Source: a phage
Sequence record: PZ452609.1
Strand: one strand, 5' to 3'
Length of the DNA: 64,000 nucleotides
This document shows positions 3,470-64,000 of this stretch, piece after piece. Every line of letters starts with the position of its first letter. Positions within the stretch are counted from its first letter, which is position 1. The position numbers and the translations under genes are program-made. Below the pieces are notes generated by a model. It saw nothing but the letters and a program-made list of their open reading frames with translations, was not told the origin of the DNA and searched no databases.

Positions 3470-3720
3470 GGCTACTGCCATCCTTCCATACCAAACCCGA
3501 CCTTACCTCACCTTATCTTACCTTACCCCACCCTACCAGACCTCATTAAAAGACCCTCTTCAAAGACCTTTTAAAAAGGTAAGTCTCATTTTAATGTAGC
3601 TGAGACTAACTACCCATACTGTACCGCACCTGACCCGACCTGACCAGACCTAACATTACCGTGCCACACCGTACCGAACAGAACACTGCCATACCTCACA
3701 TCACTTAAAAACCCTCTTAG
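3470..3720. repeat. strand-biased C/A-rich degenerate repeat tract (ccttacc/cctgacc/ccgtacc units)
   Basis: Noncoding region between the ligase stop and the upstream minus-strand gene; almost no G on the plus strand. Confidence 0.55.
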
Positions 3721-3952
3721 AAGACTCTTAAGTGATGCTGGTGAGTACCCGTTGGTTTATGCTGCTCAGTATACTCACCAAATTTTCTATGTCAACAACT
3801 TTTTATATAAAAGTCCTGATAGCTATATGTGTTACAAAACAGAATATTGTGAACAAAACACCCATTGCAAAAGATGTGTCCAAAAGCTTACTTGCAATGT
3901 ATGACAATACAAAGACAACCAGTATAAACAGAATGACTGTACTGAACATAGT

Positions 3953-56244: not shown

Positions 56245-57660
56245 ATGAGCGAGTTATTTAAACATGCGCACCTTCATGCAGGTCGAACTGAAAATGGTGC
56301 TGTAAACCATACTTCATCAATGTCTGCTCTTGTAGACTTTTACAAAGCTGCTGGTTCAAGCCGTAGCAATGTAGAAATCTTACCAGACCTGTTCTACAAA
56401 GCTTTGCGTGAGGATGTTGATGTTGCAGTTCGTATTTTACTGCATATGCGAGATGTACGAGAAGGTATGGGTGAGCGTAAAGCCTTCAGAGCTGTTTTAC
56501 TTCAAGCGATTGAAGACAAAGTTTTAGAGTCTACGCAGGTTCTTCGCATTATGGATAAGATTGCAGAACTTGGTCGTTTTGATGACTTCAAAATCTTCGT
56601 AGGTACTCGTTTCGAGACAGATGCCTTCAAACATTTAGAAGCAGCATTACTAGACCCTGCAACAGCAGGTTTGGCGGCTAAGTGGTTACCACGAGTCAAA
56701 CCACGTCATAAGCAGTTTGTAAAACGTTTCTGCAAGTTTGCCAACTTGAGTGAGAAAGAGTACCGCACACTGTTGTCTGCACTATCTGATACAGTTGAGC
56801 AAAAAATCTCTGCTAATGAGTTTGGTAAGATTGACTACAGTAAGATTCCTTCACTTGCTGCTGCACGTTACCAAAAACTGTTTAACCGTAAAGATGGAGA
56901 GCGTTACAAAGCTTACATCGAGTCCTTATCAAAAGGTGAGACTAAGATTAACGCTGGTGCTGTTTACCCATACGATGTGATTAAATCTGTCAAGTATGGT
57001 AATGCAGATGTTGCTAATGAGCAGTGGAAAGCACTACCAAACTGGATGGCAGAAGGTGAAAACATCTTGTGTATGTCTGATGTATCAAGTTCAATGTCTT
57101 GGGTGAATTTTGGCTCCATTACTGCTCTGGATATTGGTGTATCACTTGCCTTGTATGTAGCAGAACGCAATACAGGTTGCTTTAAGAATGAGTTGATGGT
57201 TTATTCAACAAACCCTCACTTCATCGAACTGAGTGGTGATTTACGAAACCGTCATCGTCAGGTGATGCGACACGTTGAATATGGCTCAACTAACTTACAA
57301 GCAGCTTTTGACCGCATTCTTGAAACAGGTAAAAGAAACAACTTGACTCAGAAAGATATGCCAAGTAAGCTTATCATCTTCTCCGATATGGAGTTTAATC
57401 AGGTTGATGGAGCTAACGGTCGTACAAACTTTGAAGCAATTCAGAGTAAGTACAAAAAAGCTGGATATGAGATGCCACAACTGGTATTCTGGTACTTAGC
57501 AAACCGTAATGGTACTTGCGAAGTATCTGTTAAGGATAACGGTGTAGCAATGGTATCAGGGTTCTCTCCAGCCACTTTAAAAGCTCTGCTTGGTGGTGAG
57601 AAGTTTGACCCAATCAGTGTAATGCTCAAAGCAGTAATGATTGACCGTTATATCTGGTAA
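56245..57660 (+). CDS. Ro60-like protein (TROVE-like N-terminal region + von Willebrand A domain)
   Basis: C-terminal MIDAS-like DVSSSM..STNLQ..FSDMEF (vWA); N-terminal NGAVNHTSSMSALVDFYKAAGSS follows the Ro60 TROVE pattern G.V...T....L..F...GS; immediately upstream of the tRNA cluster. Confidence 0.5.
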   Translation: MSELFKHAHLHAGRTENGAVNHTSSMSALVDFYKAAGSSRSNVEILPDLFYKALREDVDVAVRILLHMRDVREGMGERKAFRAVLLQAIEDKVLESTQVLRIMDKIAELGRFDDFKIFVGTRFETDAFKHLEAALLDPATAGLAAKWLPRVKPRHKQFVKRFCKFANLSEKEYRTLLSALSDTVEQKISANEFGKIDYSKIPSLAAARYQKLFNRKDGERYKAYIESLSKGETKINAGAVYPYDVIKSVKYGNADVANEQWKALPNWMAEGENILCMSDVSSSMSWVNFGSITALDIGVSLALYVAERNTGCFKNELMVYSTNPHFIELSGDLRNRHRQVMRHVEYGSTNLQAAFDRILETGKRNNLTQKDMPSKLIIFSDMEFNQVDGANGRTNFEAIQSKYKKAGYEMPQLVFWYLANRNGTCEVSVKDNGVAMVSGFSPATLKALLGGEKFDPISVMLKAVMIDRYIW

Positions 57661-57678
57661 AAAGTTTTAAAAAGGGTA

Positions 57679-57707
57679 TTGACAATGTGTTTAATACCCT
57701 TTAATAT
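57679..57707 (+). promoter_or_regulatory. sigma70-like promoter upstream of the tRNA cluster
   Basis: TTGACA, 17-bp spacer, TAATAT. Confidence 0.45.
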
Positions 57708-57825
57708 GTTCTACATAGAAACGAAATGAGAGCTTTTCTAAGATGCTGAAAAATATTTTAAAAAAGTTCTTGACAACCACTAAAAAATAATGTTAAAGTG
57801 GTTACATAAAGTTTGAAAAGTTTAT

Positions 57826-57905
57826 CTCCGTTTAGCTCAGTCTGGTTTAGCAGCACTTGCTTTGGGAGCAAGGGGTCGAGGGTTCAAATCCTTCAACGGA
57901 GACCA
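57826..57905 (+). tRNA. tRNA-Pro (anticodon TGG)
   Basis: Hand-folded cloverleaf, anticodon loop ttTGGga, T-loop ggttcaaatcc, 3' CCA encoded. Confidence 0.7.
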
Positions 57906-57912
57906 AATTAAT

Positions 57913-57990
57913 GTTCCAGTAGACAAAATGGTAAAGTCACCACTCTTTCAAAGTGGATATTTGAGGGTTCAAATCCCTTCTGGAACGCCA
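57913..57990 (+). tRNA. tRNA-Glu (anticodon TTC)
   Basis: Anticodon loop ctTTCaa; acceptor gttccag/ctggaac. Confidence 0.7.
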
Positions 57991-58080
57991 GTTTTGACAG
58001 AAGACCAATTACAGCAAACTTAATCTACTCATCTGAAAGTTAATCGGACAAAGAAGATATTTGGTCTGGTCATTAAGAAT

Positions 58081-58157
58081 TGCGGGTATAGAGAAAGGGC
58101 GTCTCACATGTCTCATTAGCATGGTATCGGCAGGTTCGACTCCTGCACCCGCCTCCA
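58081..58157 (+). tRNA. tRNA-Met (anticodon CAT); possible 1:72 mismatch (initiator-like) or register ambiguity
   Basis: Anticodon loop ctCATta; T-arm gcagg-ttcgact-cctgc. Confidence 0.6.
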
Positions 58158-58241
58158 AATTTACAGAAGACCGTTTACAGCAATATTTATTAAATTTTTA
58201 GCGGAAAAAATTGAAATATACGGTCTGGTAATACTAAACAT

Positions 58242-58318
58242 GGTTAGGAAGCACATAAGGTATGTGCGGTCGCCTGTTAAGCGAATGGCACAGGGTTCGA
58301 ATCCCTGACTAACCGCCA
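58242..58318 (+). tRNA. tRNA-Asn (anticodon GTT)
   Basis: Anticodon loop ctGTTaa. Confidence 0.65.
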
Positions 58319-58387
58319 AATTTAGGAGAGAAGCGATTGCTCACCGATTTGTAAGGTACAAGTCCTTAGCCTGAATAGAAATTAAAT

Positions 58388-58475
58388 GTGTCGTTATCCC
58401 GTAGATGGTAGCGGTGGGGACTGTAAATCCCTTGTCATTGAGACTCGGTAGGTTCGACTCCTACACGGCACACCA
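58388..58475 (+). tRNA. tRNA-Tyr (anticodon GTA), long variable arm
   Basis: Anticodon loop ctGTAaa; about 14-nt variable arm. Confidence 0.7.
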
Positions 58476-58480
58476 ATAAA

Positions 58481-58558
58481 GGTTATGTAGTTTAATTTGG
58501 TTAAAATACTCCCCTGTCACGGGAGATGATGAGGGTTCAAATCCCTTCGTAACCGCCA
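58481..58558 (+). tRNA. tRNA-Asp (anticodon GTC)
   Basis: Anticodon loop ctGTCac. Confidence 0.65.
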
Positions 58559-58705
58559 ATTTTGAGAGGGCTATTTAGCCCCTCCCTTAAAGGGTTCTTA
58601 CGAGTATTCTTTAAAGGAGCAGAAGACCAAATACAGCAAGTTATTTAAAATTTCAAGCCAATTTAATTTTGAAAAATTTAAAACTTGGTCTGGCTCAACA
58701 AATTT

Positions 58706-58838
58706 ACAGAAGACCGTTTACAGCAAAACTTAAACAATCTATTTCTCCGGTAAAGAAAAGGCGAAGGTTCGATTCCTTCACTCGGCAGATGTCGAGTTGG
58801 TGTAATGGTAGCACTTAAGATGATAAACAACGGTCTGG
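58706..58838 (+). ncRNA. permuted tRNA-like element, candidate Y RNA-like (YrlA-type) RNA
   Basis: Order is anticodon-like stem-loop, T-arm gaagg-ttcgatt-ccttc, acceptor 3' strand actcggc, short loop, acceptor 5' strand gtcgagt, D-arm tggtgtaatggtagcac; enclosed by an 8-bp helix agaccgtt/aacggtct. Confidence 0.45.
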
Positions 58839-58840
58839 TA

Positions 58841-58982
58841 ATTATCTTTGTAGATAAGTTATTAAGCTTACCTGTGAGTATGCGACCACAAAGGGTGAAA
58901 GGGTAAATTCTAGATTTAAACCCAAAAAGGCACATCGCTACAGACCTTAAGCAAGTCTGGGTAGCTTATCTACAAAGATAAT
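58841..58982. repeat. 19-bp perfect inverted repeat enclosing about 100 nt
   Basis: attatctttgtagataag at 58841 and cttatctacaaagataat at 58963. Confidence 0.7.
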
Positions 58983-58987
58983 TTAAT

Positions 58988-59063
58988 GGAAGTGTAGCAG
59001 AATGGTGATGCGGCAGACTTTTAATCTGACAGGCGATGGGTTCGAATCCCTCCACTTCTACCA
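58988..59063 (+). tRNA. tRNA-Lys (anticodon TTT)
   Basis: Anticodon loop ctTTTaa. Confidence 0.65.
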
Positions 59064-59141
59064 AATTCACCCTTAACTAAGAAACACCTGCGCGGCTGGA
59101 AACACCCACTCAACAGTTTCTCTAACTAGGGTACTTATTCT

Positions 59142-59218
59142 GGTTCAGTCGCAGATAAGGTAATGCAAGGGTCTCATAAGCCCTATGAATGTGGGTTCGA
59201 TTCCCATCTGAACCTCCA
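59142..59218 (+). tRNA. tRNA with CAT anticodon (Met or lysidine-type Ile2)
   Basis: Anticodon loop ctCATaa. Confidence 0.65.
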
Positions 59219-59219
59219 A

Positions 59220-59295
59220 GCTGGTATAGTTAAGAAGGTTATAACACTCCCCTGATAAGGGAACATCGGTGGTTCGATTCCACCTACCAGTACCA
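59220..59295 (+). tRNA. tRNA-Ile (anticodon GAT)
   Basis: Anticodon loop ctGATaa. Confidence 0.65.
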
Positions 59296-59310
59296 ATTTC
59301 AATAAAGTTG

Positions 59311-59339
59311 TTGACATTGAGATGTGACTACTTTATAGT
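59311..59339 (+). promoter_or_regulatory. strong sigma70-like promoter inside the tRNA cluster
   Basis: TTGACA, 17-bp spacer, TATAGT. Confidence 0.55.
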
Positions 59340-59570
59340 AACCTTAGTTTTCGTTGCGTAGCGTCTATTTTGCAAATTTAAAATAAATGCAAACGACAAT
59401 GTTTTTCTGGCAGTAGCTTGATAGGCTAAACACCAGTGAGGTCTTCCAATCCCTCATCAAAGAATTTGGCGTACTAGCCCACGGTATGATTAATAAGGTG
59501 GGCAACATTCTAAAGGGTATCCCTTATGGGGCTTGGCTTAAATGCAATGAGTACCCTTTAAAATGTTAAT

Positions 59571-59647
59571 GCACCCTTAGTTCAATTGGATAGAGCAACG
59601 GTCTTCTAAATCGTTAGTTACAGGTTCGAATCCTGTAGGGTGTGCCA
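59571..59647 (+). tRNA. tRNA-Arg (anticodon TCT)
   Basis: Anticodon loop ctTCTaa. Confidence 0.7.
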
Positions 59648-59795
59648 ATTAGTTAGCAGATTACTTAGACGACCTAAGCGGGTCTTCCTGTAGGGAGGTG
59701 GTCTGTATCTCATGTTTTCCAGAACATGTAAATAATCTGAGAAGGGGCTTTACAGTGTTGAGATAATACGGTAAGCTTCGAATTATAGTTTTAAT

Positions 59796-59866
59796 AGGGG
59801 TGAGCTATGGCAGCAATAGAGTCTCCAAAATTCTTGATTAGAGTTCGAATCTCTACACCCCTGCCA
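59796..59866 (+). tRNA. tRNA-Trp (anticodon CCA) with shortened D-arm
   Basis: Anticodon loop ctCCAaa; T-arm tagag-ttcgaat-ctcta; only about 71 nt. Confidence 0.5.
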
Positions 59867-59880
59867 GAAAAGGTGCTTGT

Positions 59881-60285
59881 ATGAAACTTTGTAGAAAATG
59901 TTCTCAAGAGAAGCCTTTAAGTTGCTTTCATAAAAGAGGGAATGGCTATCAGTCTGCTTGCAAAGATTGTAAAGCTAAGTACTCAGCAAAGAGATACAAA
60001 GAAGACCCTACTTATAAAGCAAAAAGGAAAGTTAGAGCAAAATATGACAAAAAGAGAAACAGAGAGTTCCTTAGTAGATATAAAAAGTTTTGCAAATGCA
60101 GAATATGTGGTGAATCCGAGCCAGTAGCTTTAGATTTTCATCACTTAGACCCTAAAGAGAAAGATTTTGCTCCAAGCAATCTTAAGACTTACTCTAGGGG
60201 AACTATTAAGCGTGAAGTTCGTAAGTGTGTTGTGCTTTGCTCAAACTGTCATAGGAAAGTTCATGCAGGACTGTTAAGTATTTAG
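59881..60285 (+). CDS. HNH endonuclease embedded in the tRNA cluster
   Basis: Cys-rich N-terminus plus FHHLDPKEKDF..CSNCHRKVH HNH motif. Confidence 0.7.
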   Translation: MKLCRKCSQEKPLSCFHKRGNGYQSACKDCKAKYSAKRYKEDPTYKAKRKVRAKYDKKRNREFLSRYKKFCKCRICGESEPVALDFHHLDPKEKDFAPSNLKTYSRGTIKREVRKCVVLCSNCHRKVHAGLLSI

Positions 60286-60298
60286 CAGTCTTATTAGG

Positions 60299-60388
60299 GG
60301 TAGGTAGCGGCTAATGGTAGCCAAACTGTCTTGAAAACAGTTGCCACTGTAGAGATACGGTGAGGGTTCGACTCCTTTACTTACCGCC
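60299..60388 (+). tRNA. tRNA-Ser (anticodon TGA), long variable arm
   Basis: Anticodon loop ctTGAaa; variable stem-loop gccactgtagagatacggt. Confidence 0.7.
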
Positions 60389-60642
60389 TAATAAGATTTA
60401 AAGCCAAGCTTCATTCGGATGTTGCTTTGGTATACCGCGTGTATTGTTGTACACACTGATAAAACACCTAGTAGGTGTCACGGAGAAGAGATAATATCAA
60501 GCTCTCCAAAGGTTCTAGTCACCGGATTAAACAAGACTATGCAAAGGCCTTTTTAGGTCTTTTAGAGGGCTTCTAAGGTCATTACAGCTTGTTGTGGAAC
60601 CTTGTTGCTTAGGTTCTTAGAAGTTCTCTAAAAAGGTTTAAT

Positions 60643-60721
60643 GGGAGATTGACGGCAACTTGGTAGACCTATCTCGCTTAGAACGAGATGCTTGAGGGTT
60701 CGAATCCCTTGTCTCCTACCA
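60643..60721 (+). tRNA. tRNA with TAG anticodon (Leu-type) but short variable arm
   Basis: Anticodon loop ctTAGaa; T-arm gaggg-ttcgaat-ccctt; irregular D-arm. Confidence 0.5.
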
Positions 60722-60728
60722 AATTAAT

Positions 60729-60804
60729 GCAGGTGTAGCAAAATGGTTATGCGGCTGACTCTTAATCAGTAAGACGATGGGTTCAATTCCCTCCACCTGT
60801 ACCA
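60729..60804 (+). tRNA. tRNA-Lys (anticodon CTT)
   Basis: Anticodon loop ctCTTaa. Confidence 0.65.
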
Positions 60805-60810
60805 AACAAT

Positions 60811-60886
60811 GGGGTCATAGTTTATATGGTTAAAATTCGAGTTTTGCAAACTTGGGAACTGAGTTCAATTCTCAGTGACTCCACCA
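60811..60886 (+). tRNA. tRNA-Ala (anticodon TGC)
   Basis: Anticodon loop ttTGCaa; G3:U70 wobble pair in acceptor stem. Confidence 0.75.
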
Positions 60887-60892
60887 ATTAGT

Positions 60893-60967
60893 GCATCCAT
60901 AGTTTAAACGGGAAAATTACAGTCTTCCAAACTGAGGTTGAGGGTTCGATTCCCTCTGGATGCTCCA
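60893..60967 (+). tRNA. tRNA-Gly (anticodon TCC)
   Basis: Anticodon loop ctTCCaa; discriminator U. Confidence 0.65.
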
Positions 60968-60974
60968 AATTAAT

Positions 60975-61050
60975 GCTCCTATCGTATAATTGGTTATTAC
61001 GGTTGCCTTGTAAGCAACTTATCAGGGTTCGAGTCCTTGTGGGAGCACCA
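60975..61050 (+). tRNA. tRNA-Thr (anticodon TGT)
   Basis: Anticodon loop ctTGTaa with perfect 5-bp anticodon stem. Confidence 0.7.
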
Positions 61051-61146
61051 ATTCAGAGGTCAAGTGAAAGACCGCTTTGAGTCAACTGAAGACCGTAACA
61101 AATTCCACGAAGTTGAGTTAGCGGCACAACTTCAGACCTCTTTCAT

Positions 61147-61221
61147 ACTCGCTTAGTTTATATGGTAAAACATCACCCTTACAAGATGAAGAAAAAGGTT
61201 CAAGTCCTTTAGTGAGTACCA
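61147..61221 (+). tRNA. tRNA-Val (anticodon TAC)
   Basis: Anticodon loop ctTACaa. Confidence 0.6.
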
Positions 61222-61222
61222 T

Positions 61223-61300
61223 GTTCCAGTATCCCAATTGGCAGAGGATGCAAGCTCAAACCTTGTATTAGTGACGGTTCGAATCCGTCTTGGAACACCA
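61223..61300 (+). tRNA. tRNA with CAA anticodon (Leu-type) but short variable arm
   Basis: Anticodon loop ctCAAac; T-arm gacgg-ttcgaat-ccgtc. Confidence 0.5.
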
Positions 61301-61305
61301 ATTTT

Positions 61306-61381
61306 GCAGGATTAGTTCAAATGGAAAGAGCAACAGTCTACGAAGCTGTTAATAGGGGTTCGAATCCCTTATCCTGCGCCA
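61306..61381 (+). tRNA. tRNA-Arg (anticodon ACG)
   Basis: Anticodon loop ctACGaa. Confidence 0.7.
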
Positions 61382-61398
61382 GATAAAAAGGTGATACT

Positions 61399-61641
61399 AT
61401 GCAAACATTAACAGTAGTTGAACATGAAAACTGTGAGAGTATTGAGTTTGTCAGGGTCATTGGTGTTGAACACCACATTTTCTTAAAAGTGGGATACTTA
61501 TGTGACCCCGCTAGAGTAGAAAGCTTTATACGTGATTGTTTTGGTGGTAGACATCTGAAGAGTGTTATTTTTGAGACAGTTTTACCAGAAGGTTTAGAAA
61601 CGAATAATAACATTTACCTCCTTACGAGGATTAGACAATGA
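61399..61641 (+). CDS. hypothetical protein (inside tRNA cluster)
   Basis: 80-aa ORF with AAGGTGA RBS. Confidence 0.45.
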   Translation: MQTLTVVEHENCESIEFVRVIGVEHHIFLKVGYLCDPARVESFIRDCFGGRHLKSVIFETVLPEGLETNNNIYLLTRIRQ

Positions 61642-62195
61642 GATACTTAAAGTATGCTTCATGGATTTTCTTAGCTTTGTTAGAGCCATTTGCAGCAATC
61701 TTAGCAGTTATCTTAGCACCTTTTGTAGTTCCATTCTACAGTGAGAAGAAAGGACACTTACCTTTCGGGTTCAGATGGATGGAGACTTATGACAACCCAA
61801 TTGATGGTGATGCAGGTCATATCAAACGATGGGCTAAGATTAGAAAGATTGGTAAGCTTGGTGTCTACATGCAGAGAGTTGGATGGCTCTGGAGAAACAA
61901 AGCTTATAACTTCTCTTACCATGTATTAGGAAGAGATGTAAAAGATGTTACTAAGTGGAAAGGTAATATCAACGTAAGTTCTAACCCTGAAGATAATCAG
62001 ACTGGTTATCTCCTAATGTGGAACAGTAATGCTTGGGGATTATTCGCTTTTGTGCCGTCAATCAAAATCTTTGGTAAACAATTTTACTGGAGAATTTATG
62101 TTGGGTGGAAACTTAAAAGTGTTGTCCCAGAAGAAAGAGCATTTTCAAGGGAAAGAGTTATGTTGGCATTCTTTATTCATCCACTAAGAAAGTAA
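61638..62195 (+). CDS. membrane protein (inside tRNA cluster)
   Basis: 185 aa with N-terminal TM segment. Confidence 0.45.
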   Translation: MRYLKYASWIFLALLEPFAAILAVILAPFVVPFYSEKKGHLPFGFRWMETYDNPIDGDAGHIKRWAKIRKIGKLGVYMQRVGWLWRNKAYNFSYHVLGRDVKDVTKWKGNINVSSNPEDNQTGYLLMWNSNAWGLFAFVPSIKIFGKQFYWRIYVGWKLKSVVPEERAFSRERVMLAFFIHPLRK

Positions 62196-62203
62196 AGATT
62201 TAA

Positions 62204-62279
62204 AGGGGATTAGTTTACAAGGTTAAAACCTCGGTCTTTGAAATCGAAGAAGTTGGTTCAATTCCAACATCCCCCGCCA
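62204..62279 (+). tRNA. tRNA-Gln (anticodon TTG)
   Basis: Anticodon loop ctTTGaa. Confidence 0.6.
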
Positions 62280-62281
62280 AT

Positions 62282-62360
62282 GCTCCATTACTCCAATTGG
62301 CAGAGAGGCCAGACTTAAAATCTGTGTTATGTATCGGTTCGAATCCGATATGGAGTACCA
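62282..62360 (+). tRNA. tRNA with TAA anticodon (Leu-type) but short variable arm
   Basis: Anticodon loop ctTAAaa; T-arm atcgg-ttcgaat-ccgat. Confidence 0.5.
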
Positions 62361-62365
62361 AATTT

Positions 62366-62441
62366 AGCGGTATAGCATAACTGGCAATGCAGCAGTCTCT
62401 GAAGCTGTCCTATTAAGGTTCAAATCCTTATGCCGCTGCCA
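62366..62441 (+). tRNA. tRNA-Gln (anticodon CTG)
   Basis: Anticodon loop ctCTGaa. Confidence 0.55.
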
Positions 62442-62472
62442 CTTCTAAGGATTCTTACGAGAGTCCTTAAAT

Positions 62473-62548
62473 GTGGCCTTATCATAAATGGTAATGACCC
62501 ATGCTGTGAACATGGTCTATACGGGTTCAAATCCCGTAGGTCACCCCA
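62473..62548 (+). tRNA. tRNA-His (anticodon GTG)
   Basis: Anticodon loop ctGTGaa with perfect anticodon stem. Confidence 0.7.
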
Positions 62549-62553
62549 ATTTA

Positions 62554-62630
62554 TAGTCCAAGTAGCTTATATGGTTAAAGCGCGTGTCTGAAAAACATGA
62601 GAAGAGGGTTCAAATCCCACTGGACTACCA
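62554..62630 (+). tRNA. tRNA-Phe (anticodon GAA), irregular acceptor register
   Basis: Anticodon loop ctGAAaa; D-stem gctt/aagc. Confidence 0.55.
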
Positions 62631-62646
62631 ATTTCAAAGGTGCTTA

Positions 62647-63381
62647 ATGAAAGAGATGACAGAACAAGGTAAGGAGATTTTCAATCTCTTAAAAACCGGT
62701 AAAGGGTTTTCTAACCCCCTTATTACTGGTGCAGCAGTTCTCGGTGGAACCGTAGCTGCCTCTACATCACTTGTAAGCTCTATTAGTTCTGTATCAGACC
62801 CTACAGTAAAGGATAAGATTGTTGCTGCTGGACTTACAACAGTTCTGCTTAACAGCTTTACCACGAGTCTGACAAGCACTACATCAACTACCAAAACACT
62901 AACAGATTACGGTCAAAAGTCCATTGATGAGTTTTCATCACGTATGCAGGTAGCAAAAGGTTACTCTAATGTTATGGGTGCAGCAGGTGAACAAGTTGGC
63001 TGTACACCATTTAGTGGTATTATGGGTGTTGCTACAGAGTATGGTCAAAAAGCTATTGATACGATTAACAGTGCACTAGATAGTGTTAATGGTGTGTTAA
63101 GTGACTTACAAGATGCTATTGACAAAGGTCTTGATACTATTTCTGATTTAGCTGAGCAAGCTGTTAGTAAGATTAATGAAGGTATTTCAAAAATTACAGC
63201 TTATGCAGATGAAGTTGTGCAGATGATTGAAGAAGAAGCTGCTCTTATTGCAGAGTACCTTAAAACGAATATCAATGGGTTCTTAGCAGGTATCTTACCA
63301 GACTGGTTTGATGATGCTTGTAAAACTGGTGTAATTGACACTATTGCAACACCAGAAATGAAGAACGCATTACAGAAATAA
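62647..63381 (+). CDS. hypothetical protein, Ser/Thr/Ala-rich
   Basis: Start moved to MKEMTEQ (AAAGGTG RBS) because the track start overlaps tRNA-Phe. Confidence 0.5.
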   Translation: MKEMTEQGKEIFNLLKTGKGFSNPLITGAAVLGGTVAASTSLVSSISSVSDPTVKDKIVAAGLTTVLLNSFTTSLTSTTSTTKTLTDYGQKSIDEFSSRMQVAKGYSNVMGAAGEQVGCTPFSGIMGVATEYGQKAIDTINSALDSVNGVLSDLQDAIDKGLDTISDLAEQAVSKINEGISKITAYADEVVQMIEEEAALIAEYLKTNINGFLAGILPDWFDDACKTGVIDTIATPEMKNALQK

Positions 63382-63383
63382 AT

Positions 63384-63476
63384 GGAAGATTAACCCTAAA
63401 AGGTAAGGGAGCAGTTTGCTAAACTGCCAGTAGCTGAGAAATCGGTGTACCAGTTCAAGTCTGGTATCTTCCTCCA
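63384..63476 (+). tRNA. tRNA-Ser (anticodon GCT), long variable arm
   Basis: Anticodon loop ttGCTaa; long variable stem-loop. Confidence 0.7.
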
Positions 63477-63480
63477 ATTT

Positions 63481-63556
63481 GAATCCGTGACAGAAACGGC
63501 TATGTGCCTGTCTGCAAAACAGGTTTATAAGGGTTCGAGTCCCTTCGGATTCTCCA
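63481..63556 (+). tRNA. tRNA-Cys (anticodon GCA)
   Basis: Anticodon loop ctGCAaa; discriminator U. Confidence 0.7.
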
Positions 63557-63593
63557 AGTTATTTTACTCTCTCTCAATTAAAATAATAATAAT

Positions 63594-63654
63594 GCCCTGC
63601 TATAAGTATTCTTCCTTTCGCTACCGAAGAGTATTTTTAGACAGGGCTTTTTTA
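63594..63654 (+). terminator. rho-independent terminator closing the tRNA cluster
   Basis: Long imperfect hairpin gccctg...cagggc followed by tttttt. Confidence 0.6.
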
Positions 63655-63778
63655 CAGAGTTATACTTTATAGGAAGACTTATACAGTATGTCTCTGACGT
63701 ACATTGTGGTTTCTCCTTGACGGTCTCTGTGCCGTCTTTTTTAAGGGGAAACATGGTTAACTATTTGGAGAAAACATA

Positions 63779-63979
63779 ATGAGCGAGACCGTTTATAAAG
63801 AACTTTATGAAGCTAATAAAAAGCTAGAATTTATGCAGAATACTATCATGGCAATTGCAGACAGATTGTCTGTAGCAACAGGTATTGATATTAAAGAAGC
63901 ATCTATGGATGCACTTCTTGATGCTGTTGATGCAAAGTTCGAAGTTAAGAAAGAAGAGACTGCTACAGACTCTGAATAA
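63779..63979 (+). CDS. hypothetical small protein
   Basis: 66-aa ORF. Confidence 0.4.
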   Translation: MSETVYKELYEANKKLEFMQNTIMAIADRLSVATGIDIKEASMDALLDAVDAKFEVKKEETATDSE

Positions 63980-64000
63980 TTCTATTTGCGGAGGTGCTTA

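Follow-up and report, generated by a model that had tools for sequence, protein, structure and literature searches.

A predicted tmRNA-type RNA without a tRNA-like domain in Felix O1-like phages and unrelated phages and prophages of Enterobacterales

Results and Discussion

A promoter-driven element between two tRNA genes

The window, as we call the whole 64,000-nucleotide (nt) stretch of the phage sequence record PZ452609.1 analyzed here, comes from a Felix O1-like myovirus. It contains 27 tRNA genes, all on the plus strand (57826-63556, ARAGORN), and between tRNA-Ile (59220-59295) and tRNA-Arg (59571-59647) lies a gap filled by the element that is the subject of this study. Comparative analysis shows this element to be a predicted, promoter-driven gene for a structured RNA of ~160 nt, followed by a stem-loop module of ~65 nt. 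The RNA resembles the message part of transfer-messenger RNA (tmRNA, SsrA), which rescues ribosomes by trans-translation, and we refer to it as tag RNA. A 275-nt query over the element is 100% identical in E. coli O157 typing phage 15 and 99.6% identical in Felix O1 (blastn). An original prediction, made from the letters of the window, had proposed a promoter-driven small stable RNA at this place; covariation and conservation in unrelated phages support it. The interpretation was right yet unspecific, in that the resume codon and the tag reading frame had not been seen. The features of the element are:

59311-59339, plus strand: sigma-70-type promoter; -35 TTGACA at 59311-59316, 17-nt spacer, -10 TATAGT at 59334-59339
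59346-59570, plus strand: predicted primary transcript or precursor (tag RNA and 3' module), from the start of conservation, the abutment on tRNA-Arg and folding
59346-59371, plus strand: 5' arm with the invariant AGUUUUCGU; resembles tmRNA nt 12-33 and is complementary to E. coli tmRNA nt 96-106
59383-59388, plus strand: resume context AUAAAU just before the resume codon; U at -5 and A at -4, as E. coli U85/A86
59389-59418, plus strand: tag frame GCA AAC GAC AAU GUU UUU CUG GCA GUA GCU = ANDNVFLAVA, without a start codon
59419-59424, plus strand: tandem stops UGA UAG, the first in the loop of the helix-5-like hairpin
59407-59436, plus strand: helix-5-like two-tier hairpin; outer stem 59407-59410/59433-59436, inner stem 59414-59418/59424-59428
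59437-59469, plus strand: pseudoknot A; stem 1 UGAGG/CCUCA 59437-59441/59452-59456, stem 2 CCAA/UUGG 59446-59449/59466-59469
59472-59503, plus strand: pseudoknot B; stem 1 UACU/GGUA 59472-59475/59483-59486, stem 2 GCCCAC/GUGGGC 59477-59482/59498-59503
59504-59567, plus strand: 3' stem-loop module; long stem 59504-59520/59551-59567 around the conserved cargo CCCUUAUGGGGCUUGGCUUAAAUGCA

The promoter TTGACA-17-TATAGT is present as originally described, with an 11/12 match, and is the top-scoring site of the 7-kb tRNA cluster (57000-64000). Promoter-like sites are enriched in this phage (8 sites of at least 11/12 in the 64-kb window, against a mean of 2.5 and a maximum of 7 in block-wise dinucleotide shuffles), and one match alone is not decisive. 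The position is what convinces, because A59346, where the block shared by unrelated phages begins, lies 7 nt past the end of the -10 box, and because 38 of 124 copies of the element carry their own sigma-70-type promoter at equal distance. The copy in the Klebsiella phage BUCT541, for example, has TTGACA-17-TAGATT. A59346 is the predicted +1 position of this promoter; cross-family conservation starts exactly there, with a conserved 5' end of the form (A/G)GUUUUCG, 7 nt past the -10 box in the window. The 3' end of the predicted transcript abuts tRNA-Arg (59571), and RNase P cleavage at this tRNA probably sets the 3' end of the tag RNA.

Immediately upstream, 38 of the 124 copies have the promoter and 66 have another stem module directly before them; further copies have a terminator. 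Felix O1 carries the same promoter as the window, and there (L127 449-537), as in some relatives, an insertion of 89 nt separates it from the conserved TAGTTTTCG, at a point aligned to window 59343/59344. In these phages a second promoter within the insert or 5' processing must then yield the conserved 5' end.

Distribution in phages, prophages and plasmids

A blastn search of a phage collection matched 596 records. The central ~125 nt (window ~59380-59504) recur at 71-87% identity in unrelated phage groups beyond the Felixounaviruses: Vi1-like Ackermannviridae (Det7, ~157 kb), G7C-like Schitoviridae (FSL SP-058, St11Ph5), Klebsiella siphoviruses of 46-50 kb (BUCT541) and several others. A scan of IMG/VR with a two-motif pattern yielded at least 120 further contigs. 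In Det7, BUCT541 and SP-058 the match lies in or beside the tRNA cluster, on the tRNA strand; 51 of the 124 copies have same-strand tRNAs within 3 kb and none has a tRNA on the opposite strand.

Of 5426 complete E. coli genomes, 691 contain a match to the element, at 150 chromosomal places and 591 times on plasmids. One chromosomal copy belongs to a lambdoid prophage, where it is flanked by the Q antiterminator and the holin. The plasmid example that we examined is of the P1 type, with the element in the C1-controlled ban operon, after a dicF-like region with a terminator and before tRNA-Asn and tRNA-Thr. The same order is found in phage P1 (L135, NC_005856; 1415-1516, 1501-1769), where the tag RNA comes right after the annotated 'dicF-like region' with its terminator and before trnA and trnT, so that the ban operon starts with a string of non-coding RNAs. 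The P1 record annotates just the adjacent 'dicF-like region' and not the tag RNA, and RefSeq/PGAP leaves the element unannotated in E. coli.

Among species-representative bacterial genomes, a strict pattern found it in Rosenbergiella, Pseudocitrobacter, Rouxiella, Erwinia and Pantoea, all of them Enterobacterales; a further match in a metagenome-assembled genome of Erysipelotrichaceae is without the element's flanking features and was rejected as due to chance. The family is thus carried by many unrelated phages and prophages of Enterobacterales, including Felix O1-, Vi1- and G7C-like phages, P1, Klebsiella siphoviruses and lambdoid prophages.

In the course of this survey we found that the tRNA coordinates annotated for FSL SP-058 (L003, NC_021772) are ~1.1 kb off the ARAGORN positions and that one coding sequence overlaps two annotated tRNAs; the feature table of this record appears to be mis-registered.

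Covariation establishes the RNA and its strand

The original prediction had named RNA folding and covariance as its checks. The 226 nt downstream of the promoter fold with a minimum free energy (MFE) of -62.3 kcal/mol, which is better than expected (z = -2.87, 1 of 200 shuffles as good), but the opposite strand folds comparably (z = -3.21), and thermodynamics alone therefore fixes neither the RNA nor its strand. We take covariation, not folding energy, as establishing both. We tested it on an explicit structure of five helices, including a pseudoknot, over an alignment of 33 sequences (A2). The outcome was positive and stronger than expected: 15 of 22 pairs show compensatory double changes, 91% of the cells are paired, against 28-51% for slid partners, and none of 500 shuffles reached the score.

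The outer stem of the helix-5-like hairpin is paired in 89% and all four of its pairs are compensatory; the inner stem is paired in 69%, in a part of A2 that is poorly aligned. The first stop codon (UGA, 59419-59421) lies inside the loop of this inner hairpin, as in helix 5 of tmRNA. In pseudoknot A, stem 1 is paired in 100% (3/5 pairs compensatory) and stem 2 in 99.2% (3/4 compensatory), occurring as CCAA/UUGG, CCGA/UCGG, CCAG/CUGG and UCGA/UCGA; the P1-type counterpart of stem 2 is GUCG/CGAC. Stem 1 of pseudoknot B is likewise paired in 99.2% (2/4 compensatory; CACU/GGUG, CAGU/GCUG, CAUU/GAUG and UACU/GGUA). We read its stem 2 by direct inspection of the sequences, and found it complementary despite changes in length and sequence (GCGGGAG/CUCCCGC in Det7, GCCCUGA/UCAGGGC in L017, AUCC/GGAU in L107). 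The loop crossing this stem is conserved (UGAUUAAUAAG, 59487-59497), with UGAUUAAUAA almost invariant among families. In the P1-type copy all pseudoknot stems are recoded, yet the complete architecture is preserved. There are two H-type pseudoknots downstream of the tag and no third or fourth; upstream of it, most members have just a bulged hairpin, of which 16 nt are missing in the window.

The long stem of the 3' module is part of the MFE fold and covaries in the Felix-like locus L099, where the same cargo is enclosed by UAAAGAGCA/UGCUCUUUA instead of UAAAGGGUA/UACCCUUUA as in the window. The cargo CCCUUAUGGGGCUUGGCUUAAAUGCA also occurs, with compensatory changes in the stem, in lambdoid prophages, a BUCT541-like phage and the P1-type plasmid. 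The local hairpin taaaggg-ta-tccctta, which the original prediction had placed here, is not the conserved fold, as relatives support the long-range stem 59504-59520/59551-59567 in its stead. The other hairpin named there, tcgttgc/gcaaacga, can indeed pair; both of its strands are invariant in the family, and the helix would sequester the resume codon. Constraining the MFE fold of the entire RNA gave no useful result, since the forced nested helices broke up the 3' module.

A start-less reading frame evolving like coding sequence

Several lines of evidence mark the stretch after position 59388 as a tmRNA-like tag. ATAAATGCAAACGA is invariant in the first four families that we aligned (window, Det7, BUCT541 and SP-058), the resume context fits the Rfam consensus of permuted tmRNA with high posterior probability, and ARAGORN recognizes the 'resume consensus' and the tag of the window element. 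The predicted tags are ANDNVFLAVA in the window, ANDNTFLAVA in Det7, ANEEMYLAVA in BUCT541, ANDDVVLMAA in SP-058 and ANDDLMMVAA in the P1 type; the E. coli ssrA tag, for comparison, is ANDENYALAA.

The frame is 10 codons long in 123 of 124 copies, with 17 different ten-residue variants. The exception, L080, has a tag of 14 residues, is divergent throughout and was left out of the later analyses. Codon 11 is a stop in all 38 distinct nucleotide versions (35 TAA, 2 TAG, 1 TGA), and codon 10 is seen as GCU, GCC, GCG and GCA. Third-position entropy in these versions is 1.22 in the tag frame against 0.75 and 0.62, and 53% of the single-base codon differences are synonymous when read in this frame; the two other forward frames give 2.5% and 20%. 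The same measure on alignment A2 gave 57.5%, against 2.5% and 12.9%. Between the upstream stop (59360) and the resume codon, the window sequence has no in-frame ATG, GTG or TTG. Judged by these substitution patterns, the tag frame is under selection at the amino-acid level and evolves like coding sequence.

The cargo of the 3' module (window 59536-59548; also L015, L125) holds UUAAAUGCA, which nearly repeats the resume context AUAAAUGCA. The reading frame after it differs between families, being AMSTL* in the window and APSALIVVAAQR* in the prophage type.

Given the conservation across families, the consistent location on the tRNA strand, the covariation and the recoded P1-type architecture, we regard it as near certain from these comparisons that the element encodes a tmRNA-type RNA lacking the tRNA-like domain.

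A possible template for trans-translation

As the frame has no initiation codon and its peptide is conserved all the same, it is probably read by ribosomes already engaged in trans-translation. That the RNA serves as a tag template in this process is the reading we favor, and we consider it close to an even call, on the lower side. The absence of a tRNA-like domain means that the alanyl-tRNA-like function must come from elsewhere, most plausibly from the host's Ala-tmRNA-SmpB. The phage RNA would then be an alternative template, and the products of stalled ribosomes in infected cells would receive a phage-specified tag. In the phage tag, the AN(D/E) beginning and a hydrophobic C-terminus rich in Ala are retained, and the middle residues, which in E. 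coli reportedly bind SspB, are changed.

A candidate for the tether between the two RNAs is the 5' arm, annealed to the resume region of host tmRNA. Across 33 diverse copies, its positions G2-U5 do not vary at all and U6/C7 hardly do, and AGUUUUCGU is perfectly complementary to nt 97-105 of E. coli tmRNA, which cover the tag codons GAC GAA AAC U. Two further blocks pair in most families: GCGAC with nt 87-91, over the resume codon (G90), and UUUGCGG with nt 75-81. In RNAduplex computations, the window arm binds host tmRNA with -23.5 kcal/mol, and for 54 of 57 arms the best host site ends at nt ~106. The mean arm duplex is -25.2 kcal/mol, compared to -18.6 +/- 5.2 for other 26-nt windows of the same RNAs; shuffled hosts match the arm energy in 0-10 of 200 cases for most arms. 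The host's own homologous 5' region reaches only -13.2 on the same target, and pairing of the arm with the body of its own RNA yields -8 to -19. Such pairing would mask the host template and hold the phage template beside the host tRNA-like domain. The complete model, in which a stand-alone phage template anneals to host tmRNA through its arm, masks the host tag and presents its own, is speculative, and we think it rather unlikely to hold in all its parts.

A number of observations weigh against these readings. The antisense frame that shares its wobble positions with the tag frame has an equally high synonymous fraction (64.9%) and is excluded only by stops flanking it on both sides in relatives and by the lack of a start. 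As to the arm, about 8 of 30 distinct arms do no better than with shuffled hosts, 12.5% of the other windows reach the mean energy of the arms, and the arms are related by descent, so that the 54 of 57 are not independent events. The arm is invariant among phages of E. coli, Salmonella and Klebsiella, and no host-specific covariation was seen with E. coli ssrA as the sole host sequence compared; the Salmonella ssrA presumably reads GAA ACC at the target, which would place a mismatch inside the 9-mer. We also take AGUUUU to fit the RNase E consensus RN|WUU, and either an RNase E site or retained homology to the D-loop/P2a region could equally explain the invariance of the arm. Overall, we consider the evidence for an antisense arm to be moderate. 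Further, we know of no trans-translation with a template that is not part, covalently or structurally, of the tmRNA bearing the tRNA-like domain, and the host template, being tethered in cis, should compete strongly. Finally, both the transcript and the tagging of proteins with its peptide are predictions from sequence.

The complementarity of the arm to the host resume region and first tag codons would also suit an untranslated antagonist or decoy of host trans-translation, acting as an antisense RNA that blocks or destabilizes tmRNA or as a mimic of the mRNA domain that titrates factors such as S1, SmpB or RNase R. Such an RNA would mirror the DS6A molecule, which consists of the tRNA domain and reportedly inhibits tmRNA. 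Without a tRNA-like domain the canonical function is impossible, and partial tmRNAs as inhibitors have precedent (PMC4131195, PMC11915505). A decoy, however, should be conserved in its nucleotides and not in its amino acids, whereas the tag varies mostly at synonymous positions and keeps its 10 codons, its stop and its hydrophobic, Ala-rich end while diverging from the host sequence. We consider this explanation unlikely, if one to be taken seriously.

No tRNA-like domain in the element

The original statement that the region contains no recognizable tRNA agrees with both ARAGORN and Rfam. In the window, the RNA begins with AGUUUUCG at the promoter and ends in a closed stem-loop followed by tRNA-Arg; acceptor stem, T-arm and CCA end are all absent from the tag RNA. 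No Rfam family reaches its threshold in the region, and the sub-threshold tmRNA matches lie over the tag alone. The tmRNA model (RF00023) scores 11.9 bits against a gathering score of 47 and aligns model positions 84-140 only, and the permuted-tmRNA model (RF04321) scores 29.2 bits (E = 3e-4, short region), also against 47; both align exactly the resume and tag stretch. The 'acceptor piece' in the RF04321 alignment of the window is the T-arm of tRNA-Ile, and this model finds nothing at E<0.1 in six other loci.

At default settings, ARAGORN reports a tmRNA neither in the window nor in 123 of the 124 copy contexts; it calls a permuted tmRNA in one Felix-like locus at the default threshold and in the window at a threshold of 90%. 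The 3' domain of the call in the window is the 3' half of a genuine tRNA-Lys and its 5' domain is the promoter and leader, and the call in L099 joins a permuted tRNA-like element to part of tRNA-Lys, with whole tRNA genes between them. Lowering the threshold also produces a second call in the window (60793-61247, tag AQLQTSFILA), which runs over real tRNA genes and seems spurious. Genome announcements credit Felix O1 and Moogle with an 'ssrA' on ARAGORN's word (PMC4319497, PMC4392139), while the curated exhaustive search of Hudson et al. restricts viral ssrA to mycobacteriophages, Bacillus phage G and DS6A (PMC4131195). What ARAGORN calls 'ssrA/tmRNA' in Felix O1-like phages is not a complete tmRNA, an annotation error that recurs.

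These calls and announcements, together with the permuted model being the best sub-threshold Rfam match and with a resume context closest to the permuted-tmRNA consensus, would speak for a genuine two-piece (circularly permuted) tmRNA whose acceptor piece, with T-arm, acceptor stem and CCA, is encoded elsewhere. Felix-like clusters indeed contain a permuted tRNA-like element with a closed acceptor ~0.6 kb upstream, which in L099 has a CCA, and in some prophages a stem module with a T-arm-like GGUUCGAAUCC in its cargo stands right before the copy. We searched for an acceptor piece in the flanks of Det7, SP-058 and BUCT541, among the T-arm stem modules, in the permuted element and among partners of the 5' arm within the window, and none qualifies. 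The G3:U70 pair is in none of the candidates examined (C3:G70 in the permuted element of the window, A3:U70 in L099, U3:G70 in the T-arm module and the Det7 element). Neither does any candidate co-occur with the family: the closed-acceptor permuted element is found in 14 of 124 copies, all in Felix-like loci, and around 73 of the 124 copies neither a tRNA nor a T-arm is called within 3 kb. In many copies a promoter or terminator lies directly upstream, and where the promoter sets the 5' end (38/124) the RNA begins with AGUUUUC, which is not an acceptor strand. With the ARAGORN domains borrowed from real tRNAs, the permuted element and the promoter/leader, we judge a two-piece tmRNA to be improbable.

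The permuted element is of interest in its own right. At window 58763-58830, as in L099 and 12 other Felix-like loci, it has the layout of a circularly permuted tRNA-like gene: T-arm GAAGGttcgattCCTTC, 3' acceptor strand ACTCGGC-A, a 3-nt linker, 5' acceptor strand GTCGAGT and D-arm. In the L099 variant (ACCCTTC-G-CCA...GAAGGGT), four of the seven acceptor pairs are changed in a compensatory manner and the CCA is encoded. The flanking AGACCGUU/AACGGUCU could close the gene at the position of the anticodon stem. ARAGORN makes no tRNA call here, and Rfam has a weak, partial tRNA match at 58730-58780 (22 bits). In Det7, ~1.4 kb around the tag RNA are without an annotated gene (L001 1798-3231) and contain further long-range helices; a mini tRNA-like element at 2259-2322 (GGTGAGG ... 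GTGTGGTTCGATTCCACAC CCTCGCC A) is without an anticodon arm and has the reversed U3:G70 wobble.

Arrays of stem modules

In a number of loci the tag RNA stands among repeats. A conserved inverted repeat of ~20 nt, CCACAACAGGTAAGAGCATT ... AGTGCTCTTTCCGTTGTGG, occurs in arrays that form long stems around cargos of 45-80 nt, which include the tag RNA, tRNAs, tRNA-like pieces containing a T-arm and the CCCUUAUGGGGCUUGGCUUAAAUGCA hairpin. We saw such arrays in L006, L007, L010, L012, L015, L021, L043 and L049, at L124:3400-3870, at L125:3170-3260 and 3615-3900, and at window 59504-59567. They occur in lambdoid late leaders, P1 and siphoviruses, have no Rfam match and look like processing scaffolds of the RNase III type or a cassette system for small RNAs.

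Between the tRNA genes of the window (57990-58840) there are four copies of another repeat, cagaagacc(N2-3)ttacagcaa ... ggtctgg, near 58000/58062, 58165/58224, 58620/58687 and 58707/58833, each of which can form a hairpin closed by AGACC/GGUCU. These may be the Felix-type equivalent of the stem modules between tRNAs. An open reading frame (ORF) of 134 residues within the cluster (59881-60285, plus strand) has sub-threshold matches to HNH endonucleases (PF13391, PF21368; E ~ 0.006), and in Felix O1 annotated HNH endonucleases flank the same segment of tRNA-Ile and tag RNA, which is consistent with a shuffling of the cluster driven by homing endonucleases.

The embedding of the element in arrays of long, RNase III-type stems (GGUAAGAGCAUU...AGUGCUCUUUCC and GUUGUGG...CCACAAC) around diverse cargos, tRNAs included, and its very different genomic contexts raise the question of whether it is mainly a processing or spacer element of polycistronic tRNA and small-RNA transcripts, for which AGUUUU would presumably provide an RNase E site, or the relic of a captured tmRNA fragment, spread by mobile tRNA-cluster cassettes and without a present role in translation. 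Conservation in at least six phage lineages, compensated pseudoknots and the constraint on the peptide are not expected of a relic, and 38 of 124 copies have dedicated promoters placed exactly at the 5' end. We find this explanation highly unlikely.

Small open reading frames and a neighboring gene

The claim that the region has no ORF free of tRNA overlap is literally untrue: a 27-residue ORF on the plus strand (59486-59569) overlaps the second pseudoknot and the 3' module, and a 47-residue ORF lies on the minus strand (59365-59508). We find it scarcely credible that one of these, or the peptide MQTTMFFWQ that an AUG would open in the +1 frame, represents an ordinary small protein gene: some phage records do annotate a 'hypothetical protein' under the match, and many family members have stop-free minus-strand stretches of 39-59 codons, but in the frame of the minus-strand ORF 16% of the differences in the tag region are synonymous and the register is not constant from family to family, the +1 frame has 2.5% and variable stop positions, the sequence under the 27-residue ORF, past ~59504, is not conserved outside Felix-like phages, the promoter and all neighboring genes are on the plus strand, and base-pair covariation, including the pseudoknots, accounts for the conservation.

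Directly upstream of the tRNA cluster, the window encodes a protein of 471 residues (56245-57660, plus strand) with matches to DUF7788 (E = 1.7e-43) and DUF2828 (E = 3.8e-29), possibly an RNA-binding protein of the Ro/TROVE-vWA-like kind. We considered a Y RNA or YrlA partnered with this gene and rejected it: there is no Y-RNA-like Rfam match at E<=10 in a 461-nt region, the RNA ends are unpaired in the conserved structure, and many carrier phages are without such a neighbor gene in the contexts examined.

Comparison with known systems

We found no earlier description of the element, its tag peptides included, in the full-text literature searched, a search outside which most subscription journals lie. 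Phage tmRNAs in this literature are complete ones and one form reduced to the tRNA domain (DS6A; PMC4131195). Since tmRNA by definition unites a tRNA half with an mRNA half in a single particle, a conserved and widespread phage form consisting of the message half only is new to the literature searched, and it has gone unannotated in model phages studied for a long time (P1, Felix O1, Vi1-type). Were the tag translated, phages would decide on the label of stalled-ribosome products, and hence on their destruction by ClpXP/SspB, and trans-translation could use a template supplied in trans. The conservative reading still corrects the 'ssrA/tmRNA' annotation by ARAGORN in Felix O1-like phages.

Small stable RNAs in phage tRNA clusters have a classical example in the species 1 and species 2 RNAs of T4 (rnaC, rnaD), non-tRNA molecules that are released by tRNA-processing enzymes and whose function was long unknown. 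To our knowledge they have no tmRNA-like tag frame, and we liken them to the tag RNA by description only. The DicF-type small RNAs of prophages share genomic settings with it, as the P1 tag RNA is immediately downstream of the dicF-like region in the same C1-controlled ban operon and the tag RNA of lambdoid prophages lies in a leader of processed non-coding segments. DicF, however, is a short antisense regulator of ftsZ without tag frame or pseudoknots, and we detected no sequence relationship.

Mycobacteriophage DS6A likewise encodes a partial tmRNA with one functional half, a tRNA-domain-only molecule proposed to interfere with host trans-translation (PMC4131195, PMC11915505). It keeps the tRNA-like domain without a tag, whereas the family described here is the opposite half.

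The two-piece tmRNAs (RF04321), known from Alphaproteobacteria, cyanobacteria and part of the Betaproteobacteria as well as from marine phages such as Melnitz (PMC9004378), have their template on an RNA separate from the strand with the CCA end, and thus show that a non-covalent assembly of template and acceptor can work. The resume context of the phage RNA, AUAAAUGCAAACGAUAAC, is nearly identical to the consensus of this family. Yet a true coding piece supplies the 5' acceptor and P2 strands and has a co-transcribed acceptor piece just upstream, and the phage RNA has neither.

The closest likeness is to tmRNA itself (RF00023): a GCA resume codon preceded by A/U-rich sequence (U at -5, A at -4), a start-less tag of 10 codons with an AN(D/E) start and a hydrophobic, Ala-containing end, a stop in a hairpin loop (helix 5) followed by H-type pseudoknots, and a 5' arm that resembles nt 12-33 (D-loop/P2a; UUCGAC...AUUUGCG). 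The phage RNA differs in having no acceptor stem, T-arm, G3:U70 or CCA end, in having two downstream pseudoknots in place of three and a plain bulged hairpin, 16 nt shorter in the window, in place of the first pseudoknot (PK1), and in its length of ~160 nt compared to 363 nt. Because the tRNA-like domain is missing and the score stays below the Rfam gathering score, we do not file the element as a tmRNA; with the tag, the stop in a loop and the downstream pseudoknots all present, it is a stand-alone tmRNA message domain.

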